The position numbers were made by a program, and so were the translations under genes. A DNA stretch of 64,000 nt from Candidatus Bipolaricaulota bacterium (GTDB taxonomy: Bacteria; Bipolaricaulota; Bipolaricaulia; RBG-16-55-9; DRXL01): NCBI GenBank assembly GCA_036783095.1, contig DAIPXV010000001.1:4043-68042 (forward strand), read 5' to 3'. This document shows, one piece after another, positions 9,049-64,000 of this stretch. The notes beneath the pieces were generated by a model. The model was not told where the DNA came from. It saw only the letters and a list, made by a program, of their open reading frames with translations, and made no database searches. Numbering within the stretch: the stretch's first letter is position 1; every line of letters begins with the position of its first letter.

Positions 9049-9246
9049 CTATTCTTTCTCTTCCTCGAGAGCGATGATCTCCATCCCCTTGTAATACCCA
9101 CAATTGAGACAAACGCGATGGGGAAGCTTAGGCTCATGACAGCGCGGGCATTCGTTGATCGTGACCGGAGTAAATCTATAGCTTGCTGCCCGATGCATCC
9201 GTTTCTGCGAACTTGATCGCCTGTACTTTGGTTGTCCCTGACCCAT
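9049..9246 (-). CDS. rpmF: 50S ribosomal protein L32 (zinc-ribbon form)
   Basis: KYRRSSSQKRMHRAA...CPRCHEPKLPHRVCLNCGYYKG. Confidence 0.8.
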   Translation of the reverse strand: MGQGQPKYRRSSSQKRMHRAASYRFTPVTINECPRCHEPKLPHRVCLNCGYYKGMEIIALEEEKE

Positions 9247-9261
9247 AATCACAACTCCTAA

Positions 9262-9394
9262 AATGTAGAATCACGGAAAGCACAGAGAAGAACTGAAAGC
9301 GCGGGAAACAACTCTTCTTCGGTTTCCGTGTGCTCCGTGAGATTTCCGTGCCTTCCGTGATCCAAATTCTATCAGATTGGGCTTGTCTTTGCAA
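9262..9394 (-). promoter_or_regulatory. rpmF promoter (TTGCAA, 17 nt spacer, TAGAAT) plus leader carrying four tandem CACGGAR repeats
   Basis: The minus strand reads TTGCAA-agacaagcccaatctga-TAGAAT, then ttggat CACGGAAgg CACGGAAat ct CACGGAGca CACGGAAacc. The plus strand carries the inverted copy TAGAATCACGGAAAG at 9266-9280. Confidence 0.5.
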
Positions 9395-9836
9395 CCGGCG
9401 GGCTCTCAATAATAAAAGTCACGGGGCCATCGTTGACGAGCGAGACTTTCATCCGTGCCCCAAAGACCCCAGACTCGACCTTGAGGCCGCTACGGCGCAG
9501 CTCCTGCAAGAAGAGCTCATAGAGCACACGAGCTTGGTCCGGGGGGGCAGCAGCGTCGAAGCTAGGACGCCGCCCCTTGAGCGTATTCCCGTAGAGCGTA
9601 AACTGCGAGATCACTAAAATCTCGCCCTGCACGTCCTTGACGGAAAGATTCATCTTGCCTGCAGAATCCTCAAAGATTCGCAGTCCCAACACTCGATCAG
9701 CTAGGAAGATCGCATCGTGCTCGGAATCGCCCTTGCCCACCCCTAAGAACACCAAGAGCCCTGGGCCAATCTGCCCCACACTCTTGCCTTCAATCTCGAC
9801 GGACGCTTCTCTGACGCGCTGCAGCACAACTCGCAT
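9372..9836 (-). CDS. dtd: D-aminoacyl-tRNA deacylase
   Basis: MRVVLQRV...GLLVFLGV...GKMNLSV...ISQFTLYG are Dtd signatures. Confidence 0.85.
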
Positions 9837-50092: not shown

Positions 50093-50536
50093 ATGCAACA
50101 TTCAACGATGATGAAACGAGAAGAGTTGGGCAAGAAGTTTAACCGAAACTGGGTGATCATCGACGCTAAGGGCAAGACGCTCGGGCGCTTGGCGTCGCAG
50201 ATCGCCAAGATCCTGATGGGCAAGCATAAGCCGGAGTACACCCCTCATGTGGACACCGGGGACTATGTCGTCGTCATCAACGCGAAAGAGATCAAGGTGA
50301 CAGGGAAGAAGCGAGAGCAGAAGAAGTACTTTCACTATTCGGGCTATCCCGGCGGGATTCGCGAATGGACCTTTGAGCAATTGCTCGAGAAGCATCCGAC
50401 CAAGCCCATCGAAGAAGCCGTGAAGAATATGCTCCCCAAGACGACGCTGGGGCGGCGGATGTTGAAGAAGTTAAAAGTCTATCCTGGGCCGGAGCACCCC
50501 CATCAAGCCCAGAACCCTCAGCCGATCTCCGTCTAG
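50093..50536 (+). CDS. rplM: 50S ribosomal protein L13 (not followed by rpsI)
   Basis: [58 protein letters not shown] 5 nt before the ATG at 50093 (the track's GTG at 50078 is rejected). Confidence 0.9.
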
Positions 50537-50554
50537 AGAACTTAGAGAGAGGGG

Positions 50555-50579
50555 AAGGGGGCTCTGAGCGAGCCCCCTT
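50555..50579 (+). terminator. GC-rich hairpin after rplM (U-tract weak)
   Basis: AAGGGGGCTC tgagc GAGCCCCCTT. Confidence 0.4.
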
Positions 50580-50695
50580 GATGTATCGGAGTGGGGTGGA
50601 CTTATCTTGAGGTTAGCGTGCCGTTTCTGGAAAATCTATGGCAAGAAGATTCTTTTTTCATGGAAGGCCTCTGTGAAAGTTGATACACTCATATC

Positions 50696-51922
50696 ATGTG
50701 GATCTTCCTCAAGCTGGCCGCGCGCAATCTCTTGCGCAACAAGCGCCGCAGCGCCATCACGTTCATCGCCATCGGGCTGGGGCTCGTACTCGTGCTCTTC
50801 TTCTACGGCTTCATCCAAGGCGTAGACAAACAGTTCACGGATAATTTTATCAAAGCTCAGACGGGACACATCCAGATGCACGCGCGCGGCTACCAGGAGA
50901 AAGCCCGGCTCATGCCCGTAGATATCGCTATCAAAGACTATCAGAGCGTCGTCCGAAAGCTCGCAGAATTCCCCAGCGTGAAGGGCATCTACCCAAGATT
51001 GCGCTTTCCCGTCATTATCAGCACCGGTAGCGAGAGTTTAGGAGTGCTTGGGCTGGGCTTTGATCCGCAAGCTGAGCGCGACGGCGTCATCGCCACAAAG
51101 ATCGTCCAGGGGGAGTATCTCTCAGAGAAGCCCGGCTACGCCCTCATCGGAGTGCAGCTTGCGAAAGACTTAAAAGTCGGCGTCGGCGATCTCTTGACGC
51201 TCGTAGCTACGACTCCCAAGGGCGCATTGAACTCTATTGACGTCGAGATCAAGGGCATCTTTGCGACGGGGTACAGCCAGATAGATAACTCTGTTTTGGC
51301 GTTGGCCTTGCCTGATGCTCAGAAGCTCCTGCGCATGGCAGGGCAAGTCACCGAAATTACCCTGATGCTCAACGACGCCGATCAAGCCGACTCTGTTGCC
51401 CAGATCATCCGAGAGAGATTCAGCGACGATGGCTTGGAAGTCCAGACATGGAAAGAGCTTGGCGCAGCGATCTTCGAATTGCTAAACGCACGGCGGCAAC
51501 TCATCGCGATCATCTCGCTTGTTGTGATCTTGATCGCGACCCTAGGGATCGTGAACACGATGCTGATGTCGGTCTTTGAGCGGGTGCGGGAGATCGGGAC
51601 CCTGATGGCTTTGGGGATGACGCCGGGGGAGATTCGGCTGCTCTTTCTGCTAGAAAGCGCGATCTTGGGGGCAGCAGGCGGATTGATGGGAGTGGGAATC
51701 GGCGGCGCTCTGTTAAAATACTTTTCGGTCGCAGGGATCACGATCACTCAAGCATCGCAGTTCGTCAATGTCCCGATAGGGACGACGTTCTATGCTGAGT
51801 TCTCTTGGAAGACATTAGGGATGTTCTTTGTGTTAGCGCAAGCTGTAGCCGTGCTCGCGGCGCTCTACCCTGCATATATTGCGTCCAAACAAGAGCCGGT
51901 GCAGGCGCTGCGCCATGTGTAG
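50696..51922 (+). CDS. FtsX/MacB/LolE-family ABC permease with a large periplasmic domain
   Basis: N-terminal LKLAARNLLRNKRRSAITFIAIGLGL. Periplasmic domain between TM1 and TM2. Three C-terminal TMs (the FtsX-like arrangement). Confidence 0.75.
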   Translation: MWIFLKLAARNLLRNKRRSAITFIAIGLGLVLVLFFYGFIQGVDKQFTDNFIKAQTGHIQMHARGYQEKARLMPVDIAIKDYQSVVRKLAEFPSVKGIYPRLRFPVIISTGSESLGVLGLGFDPQAERDGVIATKIVQGEYLSEKPGYALIGVQLAKDLKVGVGDLLTLVATTPKGALNSIDVEIKGIFATGYSQIDNSVLALALPDAQKLLRMAGQVTEITLMLNDADQADSVAQIIRERFSDDGLEVQTWKELGAAIFELLNARRQLIAIISLVVILIATLGIVNTMLMSVFERVREIGTLMALGMTPGEIRLLFLLESAILGAAGGLMGVGIGGALLKYFSVAGITITQASQFVNVPIGTTFYAEFSWKTLGMFFVLAQAVAVLAALYPAYIASKQEPVQALRHV

Positions 51923-51963
51923 AATCACGGAACGCGCAGAAATGGGCACGGAAGACACGGAGA
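51920..51963 (+). promoter_or_regulatory. TAGAAT box followed by three CACGGAR repeats in the leader of the LolA-like gene
   Basis: TAGAAT CACGGAAcgcgcagaaatggg CACGGAAga CACGGAGag, then the RBS AAAGGAGG. Same architecture as the rpmF leader. Confidence 0.45.
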
Positions 51964-51991
51964 GTGGTAAGTAAGACAAAGGAGGCGTTCT

Positions 51992-52747
51992 ATGAACGCG
52001 ATGCGCATCGTTGGGATCGTTCTCATAGTGGGTCTTATGGTCGTCGGTCTGGGGTGGGCACAGCAGCCCGCTGCTGAAGAGATTCTCAAAAAATCCGTCG
52101 AGTCGAGCTACCCGGAGCAGTTCGTCTCGCTCAATAAATTGGAGAACTTCGAGAAGGGCCAACTGAGCAGCGCGTATGAGCTGCGCGTCTTCAAGAAGGG
52201 CAGCGACAAAGCCCTTTTAGAAGTGCTCGCGCCTGAGGACGCCAAGGGGCAGAAGATCCTGAGGGTCGGCGATGAAGTCGTCATTCTCTTCCCGGAAAAC
52301 TGTCGAATCGTCCCGCTGAGCGCGCGGCAGAACGTCCTCGGCACTAGCTTCACCATCGCGGATGTCTTGAGAGTGGACTTGGTGAAAGATTATAACGCCA
52401 AGCTCTTGGGCGCGGAAAGAGTCCAAGACCGTCCAGCGTACAAGCTCGAGCTGACGGCAAAAGATGAGACCGTGCCCTTCGCGCGGATTCTCTACTGGGC
52501 AGACGCAGAGAACTTTTTGCCCCTGCAGAGCGAATTCTACACCGAGACGGGAAAGCTCTTGCGGCGCGCCCTCTACGAAGAGCGCAAGCAGCTCGCCGGC
52601 GCGCTGCGCCCCAGTAAGATCACTATCGAAAACGCGCTCGAGGCCGGCACCAAGACCGTCATGACCATCCTCGAGATGGAGAGCAAAGATCTTCCAGACT
52701 CGATGTTCACCAAAGAAGCTCTTTTAGAGTCATGCAAGAAGCCGTGA
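51992..52747 (+). CDS. LolA-like / outer-membrane lipoprotein-sorting-family periplasmic protein
   Basis: Signal peptide. ~250-aa beta-rich protein between the FtsX-like permease and the ABC ATPase. Context-based call, weak motif support. Confidence 0.45.
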   Translation: MNAMRIVGIVLIVGLMVVGLGWAQQPAAEEILKKSVESSYPEQFVSLNKLENFEKGQLSSAYELRVFKKGSDKALLEVLAPEDAKGQKILRVGDEVVILFPENCRIVPLSARQNVLGTSFTIADVLRVDLVKDYNAKLLGAERVQDRPAYKLELTAKDETVPFARILYWADAENFLPLQSEFYTETGKLLRRALYEERKQLAGALRPSKITIENALEAGTKTVMTILEMESKDLPDSMFTKEALLESCKKP

Positions 52748-53424
52748 GCGAGATCGTCGTCCGCGTTGAGAACATCACGAAAGAGTACGCGATGGGGCGC
52801 ACGGTCGTCAAGGCCCTGCGCGGCGTTTCGTTGGAGATTGCTCGTGGAGAGTTCTTGTGCATTGCCGGCCCGTCGGGATCGGGCAAGACAACACTGTTAA
52901 ATCTCATCGGGTGTCTGGACAAGCCCACATCGGGACGCATTCTCATCGAAGGGCAAGATGTCTCCACGCTTTCGCCCAAGGAGCTGGCGTGGGTGCGGCG
53001 GCGACGCTTGGGATTTGTCTTCCAGACGTTCAATCTCGTGCCGGTGCTCACGGCGTATGAGAATATTGAGCTGCCGTTGCTTTTATTGGGCGTAGGGGCA
53101 GCGGAGCGCCGCCGGCGCGTCTATGCGCTTTTAGAAGCTTTAGGGATCAGCGAGCTAGCCCATCATCGCCCCGACGAGATGTCTGGAGGACAGCAGCAGA
53201 GAGTCTCGATCGCGCGGGCGCTCATCACCGAGCCTGCTTTAGTCTTGGCCGACGAGCCCACGGCCAACTTGGACTCGGAGACGGGCAGAGCGATCATCGA
53301 GCTGATGCACGAGCTCAACAGAAAGCGCGGGACGACCTTCGTCTTTTCGACTCACGACCCCAAAGTCATGGAGCGCGCGTCGCGGTTAATACATATTCGC
53401 GACGGGCAGATTGATAACGTCTGA
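52732..53424 (+). CDS. ABC ATPase (LolD/MacB-type)
   Basis: GPSGSGKTTLLN (Walker A), Q-loop, MSGGQQQRVSIARAL, LVLADEPTANLD, FSTHD (H-loop). Confidence 0.85.
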   Translation: MQEAVSEIVVRVENITKEYAMGRTVVKALRGVSLEIARGEFLCIAGPSGSGKTTLLNLIGCLDKPTSGRILIEGQDVSTLSPKELAWVRRRRLGFVFQTFNLVPVLTAYENIELPLLLLGVGAAERRRRVYALLEALGISELAHHRPDEMSGGQQQRVSIARALITEPALVLADEPTANLDSETGRAIIELMHELNRKRGTTFVFSTHDPKVMERASRLIHIRDGQIDNV

Positions 53425-53554
53425 TAATCTGTGATCTTTGCTTGGTTTTTTTATGACCAATGTCATTGTCGAGCGCCCGCCCTCGCCGTAAGTTTTTGCT
53501 ATACCCCCTGCCGCGTGCTTCACTGGCGTGGCTGGAGAGAGAGGAGGTAAAGTC

Positions 53555-54973
53555 ATGTCGCGATTTTTACTCTGCGTAGTCATCGCAGCTTTGATCGCTC
53601 TTGGGAGCCATACGAATGTTAGTCTCGCCGGTCCATATTGGGAGAGGCTACCCACCGATAGCGAAATCCAACAAGCCGTAAATCAGTTCACAGTGCCCAA
53701 CAGATCCATTGTGGACCTACGGGTCTTCAAATATCACGACCCAACAGAATCAGATTATCCTATCACGGCGAATGGCGTTGGATTGGTCTACAGGGTGCCC
53801 AACCCAGATTATGACCCTGCTAATCCGGGTCCAGATCTTGAATGTGGTCAAGCGACTCTGTATTGGTGGCCTGACCGCGGCGGTTGGGTTTTTGTCGATA
53901 CTAGTGGCGGCCGTCGGCTGTGCTTTTCTTCCACTGATACGCTCGATGTTCTTGTGAACCGGTATCTTGGCACGCGCTTGCGTCTTGGTTGGATCGGTGA
54001 ATCACCGCCTGGTGAGAACCGGCCCCCGACAGTATCCTTGAGTTACTCGCCTCAAAACCCGACCCCAAACGATACGATCTATTTCACGGCCGTGGCTTCC
54101 GACCCAGATGGGGATGACCTCACCTACAGATGGTTTCTCAATGGTGTAGAGCAACCCGCCACCGCGCCGCATGTGCAGTTGGCCAATCCGCCTGAGGGTA
54201 CCTACACTATAAGAGTGGTCGTCTCCGACGGCAAGGGCGGCATGGCCGAAGACAGCCTCGAGTTCACCGTACAAGCCGCACGCCCACGCTATGTCATTAT
54301 GAAAGGGACAGGAGAATTCCAAGGGGAGGAGCCGCTCGCCTTTGTCGAAAAGATTGAAGTGGATGGCAAGATCACTGAGAGCAGAACTCCTCTCTATAAG
54401 GATGCCTACGTCAAGACCGGCCCTGGGGTGGAGATCGTCATTAGGTTCGCCAGCGGCGTGGTGGTAAGAGTGAAAGAGAACACTCATTATGAGGTCGAAG
54501 GGGTGAAGTTTTCGGGAACCCCCCAGGCTGTGATTTACACGAGACTCATAGAGGGTCTCATGAACTTTTGGTTTAAAGGGCGGGAGCTAGAGCAGAAGTT
54601 CGAGGTCGAGGCCAACAGGATAGTCGTTGGCATCAAAGGGACGGAAGGGACTATAAAGCTAATCTCAGGCATCACGACCGTCACAGTGACCGAGGGCGAA
54701 GTCGAGGTGAAGGATAAGGTAACGGGTGCCGTTTCAACTGTTCGTGCCGGAGAGACAGCTACTTTTGGCGGAACACCCCCGCCGAGCGGCGAGAAGACCA
54801 TCGAGCAAGCAATTGATGCCGACGGGGACGGGATCATTAACGATCTCGAAATGCTCCAGGCGCTCCAATATTGGATCAAACAACAGATCGTCCCCGGCAC
54901 CAACAAGACGATTGACGATCTGACGATGCTTTCGCTCCTGCAAAAATGGATCAAAGGGATGCCAGTGCGATAG
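53555..54973 (+). CDS. Secreted protein with a PKD domain and a C-terminal dockerin/EF-hand-like Ca-binding repeat pair
   Basis: Signal peptide MSRFLLCVVIAALIALG. PKD signature IYFTAVASDPDGDDLTYRWFLNG. Canonical 12-residue Ca loop DADGDGIINDLE plus a degenerate second repeat TIDDLTMLSLLQKWI. RBS GAGAGGAGG. Confidence 0.65.
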   Translation: MSRFLLCVVIAALIALGSHTNVSLAGPYWERLPTDSEIQQAVNQFTVPNRSIVDLRVFKYHDPTESDYPITANGVGLVYRVPNPDYDPANPGPDLECGQATLYWWPDRGGWVFVDTSGGRRLCFSSTDTLDVLVNRYLGTRLRLGWIGESPPGENRPPTVSLSYSPQNPTPNDTIYFTAVASDPDGDDLTYRWFLNGVEQPATAPHVQLANPPEGTYTIRVVVSDGKGGMAEDSLEFTVQAARPRYVIMKGTGEFQGEEPLAFVEKIEVDGKITESRTPLYKDAYVKTGPGVEIVIRFASGVVVRVKENTHYEVEGVKFSGTPQAVIYTRLIEGLMNFWFKGRELEQKFEVEANRIVVGIKGTEGTIKLISGITTVTVTEGEVEVKDKVTGAVSTVRAGETATFGGTPPPSGEKTIEQAIDADGDGIINDLEMLQALQYWIKQQIVPGTNKTIDDLTMLSLLQKWIKGMPVR

Positions 54974-62995: not shown

Positions 62996-64000
62996 ATGCC
63001 CACATATGCGAAGTTACCGGACACACTAGCGCTTGAATCCGAGATCTTGCGGTTTTGGGAGCAGGCCGCCATTGCCGACAAAGTCCTCAGCCGCAACGAA
63101 CAGAACAGAGCTCACAAGCGCTTCGTCTTTTACGAAGGGCCACCCACGGCCAACGATAAGCCTCACTTTGGGCATCTCATCCCGCGGGTCTATAAAGATC
63201 TCTTCCCAAGATATAAATTGATGCAGGGGTATCATGTCATCAAGAAGGGGGGATGGGATACCCACGGCCTCCCTGTGGAGCTGAAAGTCGAGAAGGAGCT
63301 TGGGCTCAACAGCAAGCGTGAGATCGAGGCCTTCGGGGTCGAAAACTTCGTCAAGAAATGCAAGGAGAACGTCTGGAAGTTTAAGGGCGAATGGGAGCAG
63401 TTCGACCCCAGGATGGCCTTCTGGTACGACCAGCGGAACGCGTATATCACGTATACGAACGACTATATCGAGTCCGTCTGGTGGGCTCTGAAGAAGATTT
63501 GGGAGAAGGGGTTGCTCTACAAAGGGCACAAGGTGCTGCCCTACTGCCCTCGCTGCGGCACCCCCTTGAGCTCTCACGAGGTCGCCCAAGGCTACGAGAC
63601 CGTGAAAGATCCATCTATCTTCTTCAAGCTTCGCTTGACGTATGGCGTGCCGCGGAGCGGCACGATGAAGGTCAAGCGAAGCTTGCCAGACGAAGCCTGG
63701 TTCCTCGTCTGGACGACGACGCCGTGGACGGTGCCCAGCAATGTTGCTCTCGCAGTCCATCCCGACTATAGGTACGCCCTCGTTGAGGTCGGCCATGATA
63801 TCTTCATTCTTGCCGAGAGGTTGGTCGAGCCCGTCCTGGGGGAGCATCACCCTCAGATTCTAGATACTCTCCGCGGGACCGAGCTTGTCGGCTGGCGCTA
63901 CGAGCCCGCGTATAGGCTGAGCAACGATCCGAACGCCTACCGTGTTGTTGCGGCGGAGTTCGTCTCCCTTGAGGAAGGCACCGGGATCGTGCATATCGCT
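62996..64000 (+). CDS. ileS: Isoleucyl-tRNA synthetase (type 2-like), 5' fragment continuing beyond the window
   Basis: Hand-translated: FVFYEGPPTANDKPHFGHL (HIGH region), GWDTHGLPVE, YCPRCGTPLS. RBS GGGAGGTGG 8 nt before the ATG. The open frame runs to the window end. Confidence 0.8.
   Translation, partial: MPTYAKLPDTLALESEILRFWEQAAIADKVLSRNEQNRAHKRFVFYEGPPTANDKPHFGHLIPRVYKDLFPRYKLMQGYHVIKKGGWDTHGLPVELKVEKELGLNSKREIEAFGVENFVKKCKENVWKFKGEWEQFDPRMAFWYDQRNAYITYTNDYIESVWWALKKIWEKGLLYKGHKVLPYCPRCGTPLSSHEVAQGYETVKDPSIFFKLRLTYGVPRSGTMKVKRSLPDEAWFLVWTTTPWTVPSNVALAVHPDYRYALVEVGHDIFILAERLVEPVLGEHHPQILDTLRGTELVGWRYEPAYRLSNDPNAYRVVAAEFVSLEEGTGIVHIA

Follow-up and report, generated by a model that had tools for sequence, protein, structure and literature searches.

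The spacer between the FtsX-like and LolA-like genes

The plus strand of the window, by which we mean the whole 64-kb stretch of DNA analysed, carries the gene of an FtsX/MacB-like permease (50696..51922; Pfam FtsX 4e-21, MacB_PCD 2e-17), followed by a LolA-like / MucB_RseB-like gene with its ATG at 51992 (51992..52747; Pfam LolA_like 7.5e-41, and homologues) and by the gene of an ABC transporter ATPase (52732..53424). The ATPase and LolA-like reading frames overlap by 16 nt, and for this reason the three genes look like a single operon. In the spacer ahead of the LolA-like gene, an earlier sequence-only reading had recognised TAGAAT, then CACGGAA, CACGGAA and CACGGAG, and then a ribosome-binding site. 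This order is confirmed on the plus strand: the hexamer lies at 51920..51925, the three heptads at 51926..51932, 51947..51953 and 51956..51962, and the Shine-Dalgarno sequence AAAGGAGG of the LolA-like gene at 51978-51985, within the original spacer (GTGGTAAGTAAGAC..., 51965..51991). A further heptad had been overlooked, the decayed CGCAGAA at 51935..51941, which aligns with the second heptad of the repeat family described below and reads CACAGAA or CACGGAA in orthologues of this copy. The second heptad follows 9 nt after the first and the fourth 9 nt after the third, and the resulting spacings of 9, 12 and 9 nt are like those of the family (9, 10-13 and 9 nt).

The hexamer and the four heptads form a one-armed, or half, copy of that family (51920..51964, plus strand), matching its nhmmer profile at positions 1-44 on the plus strand (E 2e-4) and at positions 52-95 on the minus strand (E 3e-5). 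The hexamer is assigned to the family terminus T[T/A]GAAT from terminus statistics, without support as a -10 box, and its first three bases are the TAG stop codon of the FtsX-like gene (51920-51922). Both arms and a long hairpin are lacking at this locus, where profile positions 1-44 alone are present, and the RNA of the spacer folds no better than shuffled sequences (z = -0.4). The element is regarded as a half copy because of this single arm and the lack of folding above shuffles.

The rpmF locus of the same window contains a full palindromic copy of ~100 nt (9266..9365, not assigned to a strand), located between dtd (9372-9836, minus strand) and rpmF (9049-9252, minus strand). It matches profile positions 1-95 (nhmmer E 3.5e-18), its RNA folds at -48.7 kcal/mol (z = -3.5), and orthologous copies occur in lineages L024, L040, L065, L078, L088 and L115. 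The 15-mer TGTAGAATCACGGAA, reported earlier as identical at the two loci, is indeed found on the plus strand at both (51918-51932 and 9264-9278). The claim that the loci share the same architecture needs correction, since the rpmF copy is a full palindrome and the LolA copy a single arm, and the shared 15-mer, being on the plus strand, is antisense to rpmF. To sample the rpmF locus without bias, metagenomes were scanned for dtd relatives; the scan returned mostly unrelated phyla and one close relative with the element (L115); as a negative control, the element was absent from 79 of 79 unrelated dtd loci.

A chance resemblance of the two intergenic regions has a negligible probability. Arithmetic does expect some exact 15-mer repeat within 64 kb, and the 3 matches of the bare 13-mer in the window, with up to two mismatches allowed, do not differ significantly from the 1.25 expected. 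CACGGAR is enriched (31 vs 17 +/- 4 expected), with 8 of the 31 occurrences in the rpmF and LolA loci; single heptads outside both elements show no clear enrichment (23 vs 17 +/- 4), and clusters of at least three heptads occur at these two loci only. However, a profile of copies from other genomes matches the window at exactly two places, 9266-9365 (E 3.5e-18) and 51920-51964 (E 3e-5), which bears out the earlier view that the recurrence is not due to chance. Together with the orthologous copies in many genomes, this already refutes the chance reading.

A dispersed palindromic repeat located at gene ends

An exact 18-mer from the element terminus was used as the seed for the family sample and retrieved 101 stretches, ~68 of which carry more element sequence than the seed; the other 18-mer matches roughly equal the number calculated for chance (~35). 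As the seeding was exact, the termini are ascertained in this sample, and the figure for constraint quoted below therefore rests on inner columns only. The sample includes 46 distinct full-length sequences, which have one common architecture and represent 44 distinct genomic sites. The hosts are MAGs labelled Bipolaricaulota, Acetothermia or Fraserbacteria, or mislabelled MAGs in which the copies stand in orthologous gene contexts, and the 18-mer had no match in viral contigs. The copy number is roughly estimated at ~20-30 per Mb, apparently tens per genome.

The complete element, of 71-112 nt, is an imperfect palindrome which runs from T[T/A]GAAT through heptads to a loop and then through the mirror image to ATTC[A/T]A. 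Each arm has four phased heptads, CACGGAA in the left and TTCCGTG in the right, arranged as two 16-nt units CACGGAA-NN-CACGGAA (CACGGAANNCACGGAA) with a fixed 9-nt phase and a variable linker of 3-6 nt between them. Accordingly, heptads 1 and 2 are spaced by 9 nt in 67 of 73 arms and heptads 3 and 4 in 41 of 41, and the spacing of heptads 2 and 3 varies from 10 to 13 nt. All 46 full-length sequences fold as long hairpins (-23 to -57 kcal/mol). GC-rich repeats were also found inside the loops of the copies in L057 and L072. No Rfam family passes at gathering or permissive thresholds (best E-values 1-4, irrelevant), and the literature yielded neither the element sequence nor a published tie between Bipolaricaulota/Acetothermia and such repeats, a family which seems undescribed. 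The element at the LolA locus is one arm of this short, non-coding, dispersed palindromic repeat of the REP/ERIC/MITE-like kind, specific to Bipolaricaulota (Acetothermia/OP1).

The genomic context of the 45 full copies was assessed with gene calls from our own longest-ORF caller, not a trained gene finder. The neighbouring genes are co-directional in 25 cases, convergent in 14 and divergent in 6, and family copies adjoin functionally unrelated genes in either orientation. Among the 70 gene 3' ends which face a terminus, 29 stop inside the terminus and 16 more within 15 nt. The left terminus is TTGAAT in 30 of the 45 full copies and the right one ATTCAA in 27; the stop codon offered by the hexamer is TGA in TTGAAT and TAG in TAGAAT. 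We find the element at the ends of genes, and a neighbouring gene often takes its stop codon from the terminal hexamer. Within the 25 co-directional contexts its orientation is the same in 15 and opposite in 10, and the comparison of sense and antisense fold energy (12 vs 13; Wilcoxon p = 0.45) gives no sign of strand-specific RNA selection.

These observations bear on the proposal that the LolA-locus TAGAAT is the -10 box of an internal promoter, driving the LolA-like and ATPase genes independently of ftsX, and that these repeats and those at rpmF act as a common operator of a regulon. TAGAAT agrees with TATAAT at five of six positions, the order of TAGAAT, repeats and ribosome-binding site is superficially alike at both loci, and the rpmF locus has a conserved TAGAAT with a TG extension and a TTGCAA spaced by 17 nt. 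We nonetheless consider the proposal very improbable. At the LolA locus, a -35 element is absent 16-18 nt upstream of the hexamer, TG directly abuts TAGAAT instead of standing one base away (no TGn extension), and the promoter scan gave no promoter-like site in 51700-52100 and none on the plus strand of 50400-53600; the hexamer, which no sigma-70-like site uses, forms the end of the element and contains the stop codon of the FtsX-like gene. The terminator scan found a sole terminator-like match there, on the wrong strand and over the start codon. The -10 candidate of rpmF is another hexamer, a separate TAGAAT at 9366-9371 on the minus strand, outside the element and on the strand opposite to the shared 15-mer. 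It belongs to a promoter-like site, TTGCAA - 17 nt - TGATAGAAT (9366..9394, minus strand), just outside the rpmF copy, where TGATAGAAT is invariant in 7 of 7 lineages and the -35 TTGCA[A/C] is present in 6 of 6 with sequence reaching that far. Furthermore, with the terminus frequencies given above most termini are not -10-like, 14 of the 45 full copies lie between convergent genes, and the operon is retained where orthologous spacers are without the array. Of the two options offered earlier, the small repeat family is upheld (~68 loci, 44 sites); the regulon motif is unsupported, because the genes flanking the copies have unrelated functions and are variously co-directional, convergent and divergent.

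History and possible mobility of the repeat

The insertion of the half copy at this spot of the FtsX-LolA spacer is common to at least five further lineages, of which three have it intact, one has it decayed and one has it deleted. The intact form occurs in the window, L026, L041 and L199; in L197 all four heptads are mutated (profile E = 1.6), and in L007 the copy is cut down to one heptad. In L002-L006 and L103 the spacer has a full copy, differently positioned, and in L195 a truncated version of it, and L203 shows the backbone of the full-copy lineages without any copy, an empty site. No copy is present in this spacer in L201, L010 and L011. The operon is intact in L197, L007, L203, L201, L010 and L011 despite the decayed, deleted or absent array. 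L199 and L197 keep the ancestral TGA stop codon after the insertion. The 45-nt half copy separates the final sense codon of the FtsX-like gene from the TGA with which that gene originally ended, and carries a TAG of its own. Judging from sequence divergence the insertion is old, being common to lineages whose LolA-like coding sequences share no more than ~82-85% identity.

The element shares with MITEs its small size, the lack of coding sequence, the terminal inverted repeats (from end to end, the element forms an inverted repeat), the many dispersed copies and, at the FtsX-LolA spacer, a presence/absence polymorphism at orthologous sites. The target-site duplication of MITEs is missing: the flanks of the 45 full copies have no direct repeat, and only a T at -1 and an A at +1 stand out there, lengthening the inverted repeat. 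No transposase enclosed by inverted termini was detected in ~450 kb around copies, no RAYT among the scanned ORFs bracketed by copies (in genome fragments), and the neighbourhood of the copies showed no transposase, no RAYT and no autonomous element whose ends match. Since neither a transposase nor a target-site duplication was found, mobility is inferred only from dispersal, the empty site of L203, nested insertions and differences between lineages. Candidate mobilisers were rejected. The two inverted termini 1.36 kb apart in L082 contain ordinary genes, the ORFs bracketed by copies encode ClpP, a PDDEXK_3 protein, toxin-antitoxin pairs and unknowns with no transposases among them, and the PDDEXK_3 gene is present at just one orthologous locus.

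An integron attC-like site, or another site of site-specific recombination marking gene-cassette boundaries, would fit with imperfect palindromes which abut stop codons. Copies bracket small cassettes of toxin-antitoxin type (DUF4258 with an MqsA-like protein; HicA with HicB), as well as a DUF5615 gene in L034 and a DUF5647/DUF7718 pair in L082, and SKW78 has a cassette between two 99% identical copies where SKYB55 lacks the cassette and has one copy only. However, attC sites have the core sites RYYYAAC ... GTTRRRY (R''/R') and come in cassette arrays with an adjacent integrase. The termini of the repeat, TTGAATC ... GATTCAA, differ from these boxes, its copies are dispersed among housekeeping genes (rpmF, clpP, ftsX) rather than in cassette arrays, and the gene tables list no integrase adjoining any copy, all of which makes an attC-like nature extremely unlikely.

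Among known repeats, the REP/REPIN elements of Proteobacteria are similar in being short, non-coding, extragenic, dispersed and present in many copies, in having a hairpin-forming inverted doublet as the full unit and single arms as apparent remnants, and in the lack of a visible target-site duplication. The REP unit is an imperfect palindrome of 20-40 nt with a conserved GT[AG]G head, whereas the Bipolaricaulota arm is a direct heptad array with a T[T/A]GAAT terminus and without that head; moreover, the sequences are unrelated, the phylum is another one, and REP elements number hundreds per genome as compared with apparently tens here (a rough estimate). REP singlets have been described as defunct remnants of REPINs, and a cognate RAYT (Y1 transposase) gene is flanked by the repeats (PMC3116915); in Bipolaricaulota, no RAYT was found among the scanned ORFs between copies.

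ERIC/IRU elements (~127 bp imperfect palindromes) are comparable in forming ~100-nt imperfect palindromes within intergenic regions that are transcribed, in their location at gene 3' ends, and in having truncated and internally deleted or extended variants. Orthologous copies evolving more slowly than neutral DNA would be another likeness, reportedly observed for ERIC by Wilson & Sharp in 2006. Sequence and host range are unrelated, ERIC has no heptad sub-repeats, and we know of no ERIC termini which supply stop codons. At gene 3' ends, ERIC/IRU can affect transcript levels (PMC10969869).

The Correia/NEMIS MITEs of Neisseria are likewise inverted-repeat elements (~100-150 bp), co-transcribed with neighbouring genes, and their promoter-box-like termini invite the same promoter reading. 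Correia elements duplicate a TA target site, contain an IHF site and have demonstrated promoters; none of these was found for the Bipolaricaulota repeat. The long Correia/NEMIS duplexes are cleaved by RNase III (PMC10969869). BOX elements of Streptococcus pneumoniae resemble the repeat in their modular structure, in which a variable number of internal sub-units produces length classes, and differ in sequence and in a boxA-boxB(n)-boxC organisation which is not a symmetric heptad palindrome. BOX repeats insert into one another (PMC10969869), a nesting comparable to that in the loops of L057 and L072.

Heptad constraint and significance of the repeat

In our view, the LolA-locus array is likely a one-armed remnant of a dispersed Bipolaricaulota palindromic repeat and not a promoter or a regulon operator. 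The half copy would be transcribed along with the genes as a spacer, acting neither as a promoter nor as a hairpin, and translation of the LolA-like gene would start from the strong Shine-Dalgarno site of that gene. Full copies are predicted to form transcript hairpins of ~35-45 bp, which could serve as processing or stability elements.

The evolution of the heptads complicates a purely passive role. Comparing orthologous copies, the heptad columns are 91% identical and the spacer and loop columns 54%, a difference which implies constraint on the heptad sequence; the neutral yardstick, the four-fold degenerate sites of the LolA-like gene, is 0.61-0.64 identical, so that the spacers are at about the neutral level. 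By our own count, the half copy of the window is identical to that of L026 or L041 at 40 of 45 positions (P = 1e-4 at neutral identity, binomial test), and across lineages the half copies agree at 40-43 of 45. Such in-place conservation, even in a half copy with no hairpin, is unexpected for inert junk and leaves room for a function at the LolA locus.

The CACGGAA repeats, the half copy included, might thus be selected binding sites for a sequence-specific host protein, which could bind DNA or could be a GGA-recognising, CsrA-like translational regulator binding RNA upstream of the Shine-Dalgarno sequence. In addition to the heptad-spacer contrast and the conservation of the half copy despite its missing partner arm (four-fold sites ~0.62), none of 41 variant cells at the variable heptad position has a compensatory change, so that sequence, not pairing, seems to be kept; the 9-nt phase fixed in each 16-nt unit is near one helical turn; and half copies between co-directional genes place CACGGAA on the sense strand immediately 3' of the upstream stop codon (our own reading of the table). 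We consider this functional array unlikely nevertheless. The array is decayed in L197, deleted in L007 and absent from L203, L201, L010 and L011, lineages which all keep the operon intact, the neighbouring genes are unrelated, copies also occur in convergent spacers and in both orientations, and lone heptads outside the two elements show no clear excess. As for CsrA, the GGA motifs are base-paired in full copies and would make poor sites, and tblastn of ~1 Mb of sampled loci with a B. subtilis query gave no CsrA homologue, a weak test in view of this query and the small sample.

Within the repeat reading preferred here, the heptads may be recognition modules for some protein, either a cognate transposase or recombinase or a host factor, and recognition by a protein would explain why heptads are conserved in place while spacers drift. 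That selection keeps the arrays as modules for a dedicated protein, in a REPIN-RAYT-type partnership of repeat and transposase or with a host nucleic-acid-binding factor, is a tentative suggestion of low probability. If it is true, the provision of stop codons would be an evolved property of the termini, letting copies fit the gap between stop codon and Shine-Dalgarno site in the operons of a compact genome, and lineages like L197, with all four heptads decayed, would have lost the partner protein.

For annotation, the arrays should be masked in Bipolaricaulota MAGs as repeats, not as promoters, operators or leader RNAs, bearing in mind that many genes have their stop codon inside the repeat. 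The repeat probably also causes assembly breaks and, as a lineage marker, reveals mislabelled or contaminated MAG contigs. As far as we found, this is the first small dispersed repeat described in the uncultured phylum Bipolaricaulota, and it is distinguished by arms of phased heptads, termini which double as stop codons, and heptads strongly conserved in place beside neutrally drifting spacers. This last contrast makes the question of whether such a repeat is selfish or useful testable by comparative genomics alone.

The FtsX-LolA spacer and the rpmF locus

The spacer between the FtsX-like and LolA-like genes carries, on the plus strand, a one-armed copy of a dispersed palindromic repeat (51920-51964), and the terminus of this copy supplies the FtsX stop codon. 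As read from the sequence, TAGAAT (51920-51925) is followed by the heptads CACGGAA (51926-51932), CGCAGAA (51935-51941, decayed), CACGGAA (51947-51953) and CACGGAG (51956-51962), and then by AAAGGAGG (51978-51985), ahead of the ATG of the LolA-like gene (51992, plus strand). The sequence-only reading had described TAGAAT, three heptads and a ribosome-binding site in this order, all of which are present, but it overlooked both the fourth, decayed heptad and the fact that the FtsX/MacB-like ORF (50696-51922, plus strand) takes its stop codon from the TAG of this correctly placed TAGAAT. The single arm folds as RNA no better than shuffled sequences, Rfam gave no family match here or at the rpmF locus, and the homologue search returned LolA-like proteins named 'bacterium HR07', Candidatus Bipolaricaulota and Candidatus Acetothermia, which places the window in Bipolaricaulota (OP1).

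The 15-mer TGTAGAATCACGGAA, reported as shared with the rpmF locus, recurs there exactly (9264-9278, plus strand), but runs antisense to rpmF, which is on the minus strand (9049-9252). The locus is an imperfect palindrome of about 100 nt, whose two arms carry CACGGAR and TTCCGTG heptads respectively, and folds at -48.7 kcal/mol (z = -3.5). Just beyond the repeat and directly after the dtd stop codon stands a separate TAGAAT (9366-9371, minus strand), which forms with a TG extension and a TTGCAA 17 nt upstream a promoter-like site at the dtd 3' end, TTGCAA - 17 nt - TGATAGAAT (9366-9394, minus strand). TGATAGAAT does not vary in 7/7 lineages, the neighbouring hexamer of the element is variable, and a -35 TTGCA[A/C] was found in 6 of the 7, namely all those whose sequence extends far enough. 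Given this position, the entire palindrome would form the rpmF 5' leader.

At the LolA locus a consensus scan found nothing promoter-like: TAGAAT there lacks a -35 at 16-18 nt, and the TG directly adjoins it where a gap of one base would be expected; the suggested internal promoter is thus not borne out. The 'same architecture' at the two loci is superficial, since the candidate -10 TAGAAT at rpmF is a different hexamer, outside the repeat and on the minus strand: what they share is the repeat, not a regulatory design.

Architecture and distribution of the repeat family

The family first came to light in orthologous FtsX-LolA spacers: those of the closest relatives (loci L002-L006), 122 nt long except for 141 nt in L006, contain a whole hairpin, TTGAATCACGGAAAGCACGGAAGG...GTGCTTTCCGTGATTCTAA. 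An exact scan with the 18-mer TWGAATCACGGAAAGCAC, over one genome per GTDB species, returned 101 stretches. Of these, 68 extend well beyond the seed into the element and lie in MAGs labelled Bipolaricaulota, Acetothermia or Fraserbacteria, or in 'Thermotogae' MAGs whose gene contexts match those of the window by orthology; the others are isolated 18-mers from unrelated taxa, in about the number (~35) calculated to arise by chance. In this sample, seeded by the exact 18-mer and drawn from genomes as fragments, 46 distinct full-length sequences of 71-112 nt align to one architecture: T[T/A]GAAT, four CACGGAA-type heptads, a loop, four TTCCGTG heptads and ATTC[A/T]A. Left termini are TTGAAT in 30/45 and right termini ATTCAA in 27/45, hexamers that are not -10-like and so tell against the promoter reading. 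The heptads are paired in a fixed 9-nt phase (heptads 1-2 in 67/73 arms, heptads 3-4 in 41/41), the distance between the starts of successive pairs being variable through the linker (10-13 nt), and every full-length sequence folds into a long nested hairpin (-23 to -57 kcal/mol).

In the window the family profile has just two hits, a full-length one at 9266-9365 (E 3.5e-18) and a one-armed one at 51920-51964 (E 3e-5); it has none in 79 unrelated dtd loci, which together span 214 kb. Viral contigs gave no match to the repeat, and the literature search found no paper containing its sequence or describing such repeats in Bipolaricaulota. The density of copies, roughly estimated from the two in the window's 64 kb and 10 unseeded ones in 455 kb, is about 20-30 per Mb.

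A second, unrelated dispersed repeat was observed at 63625-63720 (AAGCTTCGCTTGACG..CGTGCCGC..GCGGCACG..GTCAAGCGAAGCTTG..CCAGACGAAGCCTGG), in frame within an isoleucyl-tRNA synthetase-like ORF, to which it adds roughly KLRLTYGVPRSGTMKVKRSLPDEA; its core is also present in L002-L004, L030 (twice), L037, L057, L059, L074 and L109.

Genomic context was counted with our own, crude longest-ORF caller, by which 45 of 53 non-redundant full copies were classifiable (25 co-directional, 14 convergent, 6 divergent). Where a gene 3' end faces a terminus (70 cases), the stop codon falls within the terminal hexamer in 29, as the TGA of TTGAAT or the TAG of TAGAAT, and within 15 nt in another 16. On the opposite side a start codon often follows after 1-31 nt, so that many copies occupy the gap between stop and Shine-Dalgarno site within operons. 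The arrangement at 51920, with the FtsX TAG in the terminus and the LolA-like ATG 28 nt past the arm, is therefore typical of the family. In the convergent pairs of L062, L086, L027 and L066, the stops of both genes lie within the two termini of one copy.

Of the two possibilities raised by the sequence-only reading, a regulon motif or a small repeat family, the latter is upheld by the 68 loci and by the one architecture of the 46 full-length sequences; a regulon is not supported, as copies lie in convergent spacers and beside unrelated genes (clpP, rpmF, ftsX).

No target-site duplication is visible in the flanks, which merely prolong the inverted repeat by T...A, and no transposase or RAYT adjoins any copy examined. 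The arms of one element stand about 770 nt apart in L057 (711-755 and 1524-1567) and about 160 nt apart in L072 (752-785 and 948-989), hence some apparent half copies are split full copies; the insert in L057 consists of GC-rich repeats of the second family nested in the loop, and L072 looks similar. On one contig of SKW78 two 99% identical copies (L029 7548-7636, L063 294-382) surround a cassette of about 660 bp encoding a DUF4258 protein and an MqsA-like protein, and SKYB55 has, in the same place, one copy (L111 5707-5795) and no cassette. Further small cassettes between copies encode HicA/HicB (L085), DUF5615 (L034) and DUF5647/DUF7718 (L082). Downstream of clpP, a gene of the PD-(D/E)XK nuclease family (PF13366) has copies on both sides in two genomes (L101 7348-7812; L086 3003-3380) and is truncated beside a partial copy in a third (L082 5339-5470; all minus strand); being confined to one orthologous locus, it has no general association with the repeat.

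History of the spacer and constraint on the heptads

Fourteen lineages were sampled at the FtsX-LolA spacer, 11 via protein, and thus independently of the repeat, and L026, L041 and L103 via the 18-mer scan. In type A spacers a 45-nt one-armed copy separates the last sense codon (GTG) from the original TGA, which still stands after the insertion in L199 and L197. Type B spacers retain the original TGA and a GTGTGTA... backbone, with a full copy farther downstream (L002-L006, L103), a truncated remnant fused to the Shine-Dalgarno site (L195, HR07) or an empty site (L203). Conservation of the repeats across orthologous spacers, the absence of which would have counted against the sequence-only reading, holds in part: the heptads are intact in L026, L041, L199 and, except for heptad 2, the window, but in L197 all four are mutated, below profile detection (E = 1.6), in L007 one is left, in what looks like a deletion between direct repeats, and no copy is present in L203, L201, L010 and L011. 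The half copy at 51920-51964 is ancient, and it is decaying in the window genome. At the rpmF locus AACTGAA replaces heptad 3 in every copy, and such common idiosyncrasies indicate single ancient insertions rather than repeated hits.

The LolA-like coding sequence of the window is 91-94% identical to type B L004 and L103 and only 82-85% to the other type A lineages, so that spacer type is incongruent with the gene tree. Compared over window 51889-51994 with L004, L103, L026, L041, L199, L197, L195 and L203, this pattern suggests allelic exchange between lineages, or loss and regain.

Orthologous copies in different genomes are 91% identical in the family-wide conserved heptad columns (inner columns only, which the 18-mer seed did not ascertain) and 54% identical in spacer and loop columns; four-fold degenerate sites of the LolA-like gene are 0.61-0.64 identical between type A lineages. 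By our own count the half copy of the window matches that of L026 or L041 at 40/45 positions, and L026 matches L041 at 43/45 (binomial P at neutral identity 1e-4 and 3e-7). Heptad sequences have therefore been kept in place in many lineages, L197 and L007 being exceptions. The main rival explanation, that at the LolA locus the array functions in its own right as a binding site for a protein, is considered unlikely. Lineages in which the array has decayed or is missing keep the operon, which weighs against the promoter or regulon reading. There is no sign that selection acts on RNA structure: among 41 variant cells at the variable heptad position no compensated pair occurs (15 wobble, 26 mismatch), and folding has no sense/antisense asymmetry.

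Nature of the element

The half copy would ride passively on the ftsX-lolA-ATPase transcript. Full copies, if active at all, may act in the form of long RNA duplexes, for which Correia and ERIC elements offer precedents (RNase III processing, 3' stabilisation; PMC10969869). The heptads may be recognition modules for some protein. In kind, the repeat is a small dispersed repeat, REP/ERIC/MITE-like, and its one-armed copies have a counterpart in REP singlets, which have been interpreted as defunct REPIN remnants (PMC3116915). Unlike REP, however, it has no palindromic unit and no GTAG head, and no RAYT was seen; unlike a classical MITE, it has no target-site duplication and no autonomous partner was seen; it is not an attC site either. 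Its unusual traits are the heptad-built arms, the termini doubling as stop codons and the heptads conserved in place.

The distribution of the repeat also touches on MAG labels. MAGs labelled 'uncultured Thermotogae' carry it in gene contexts orthologous to those of the window, for which reason the label is probably wrong. Full copies on short contigs of MAGs labelled Gemmatales, Fimbriimonadales and 'archaeon' suggest binning contamination. The loci concerned are L041, L050, L059, L088 and L110 (binchicken_co40_63), L078, L081 and L098 (co71_26), and L046, L049 and L092. The CACGGAA repeat serves as a lineage marker. The half copy at the LolA locus is ordinary, and the family behind it is moderately interesting.
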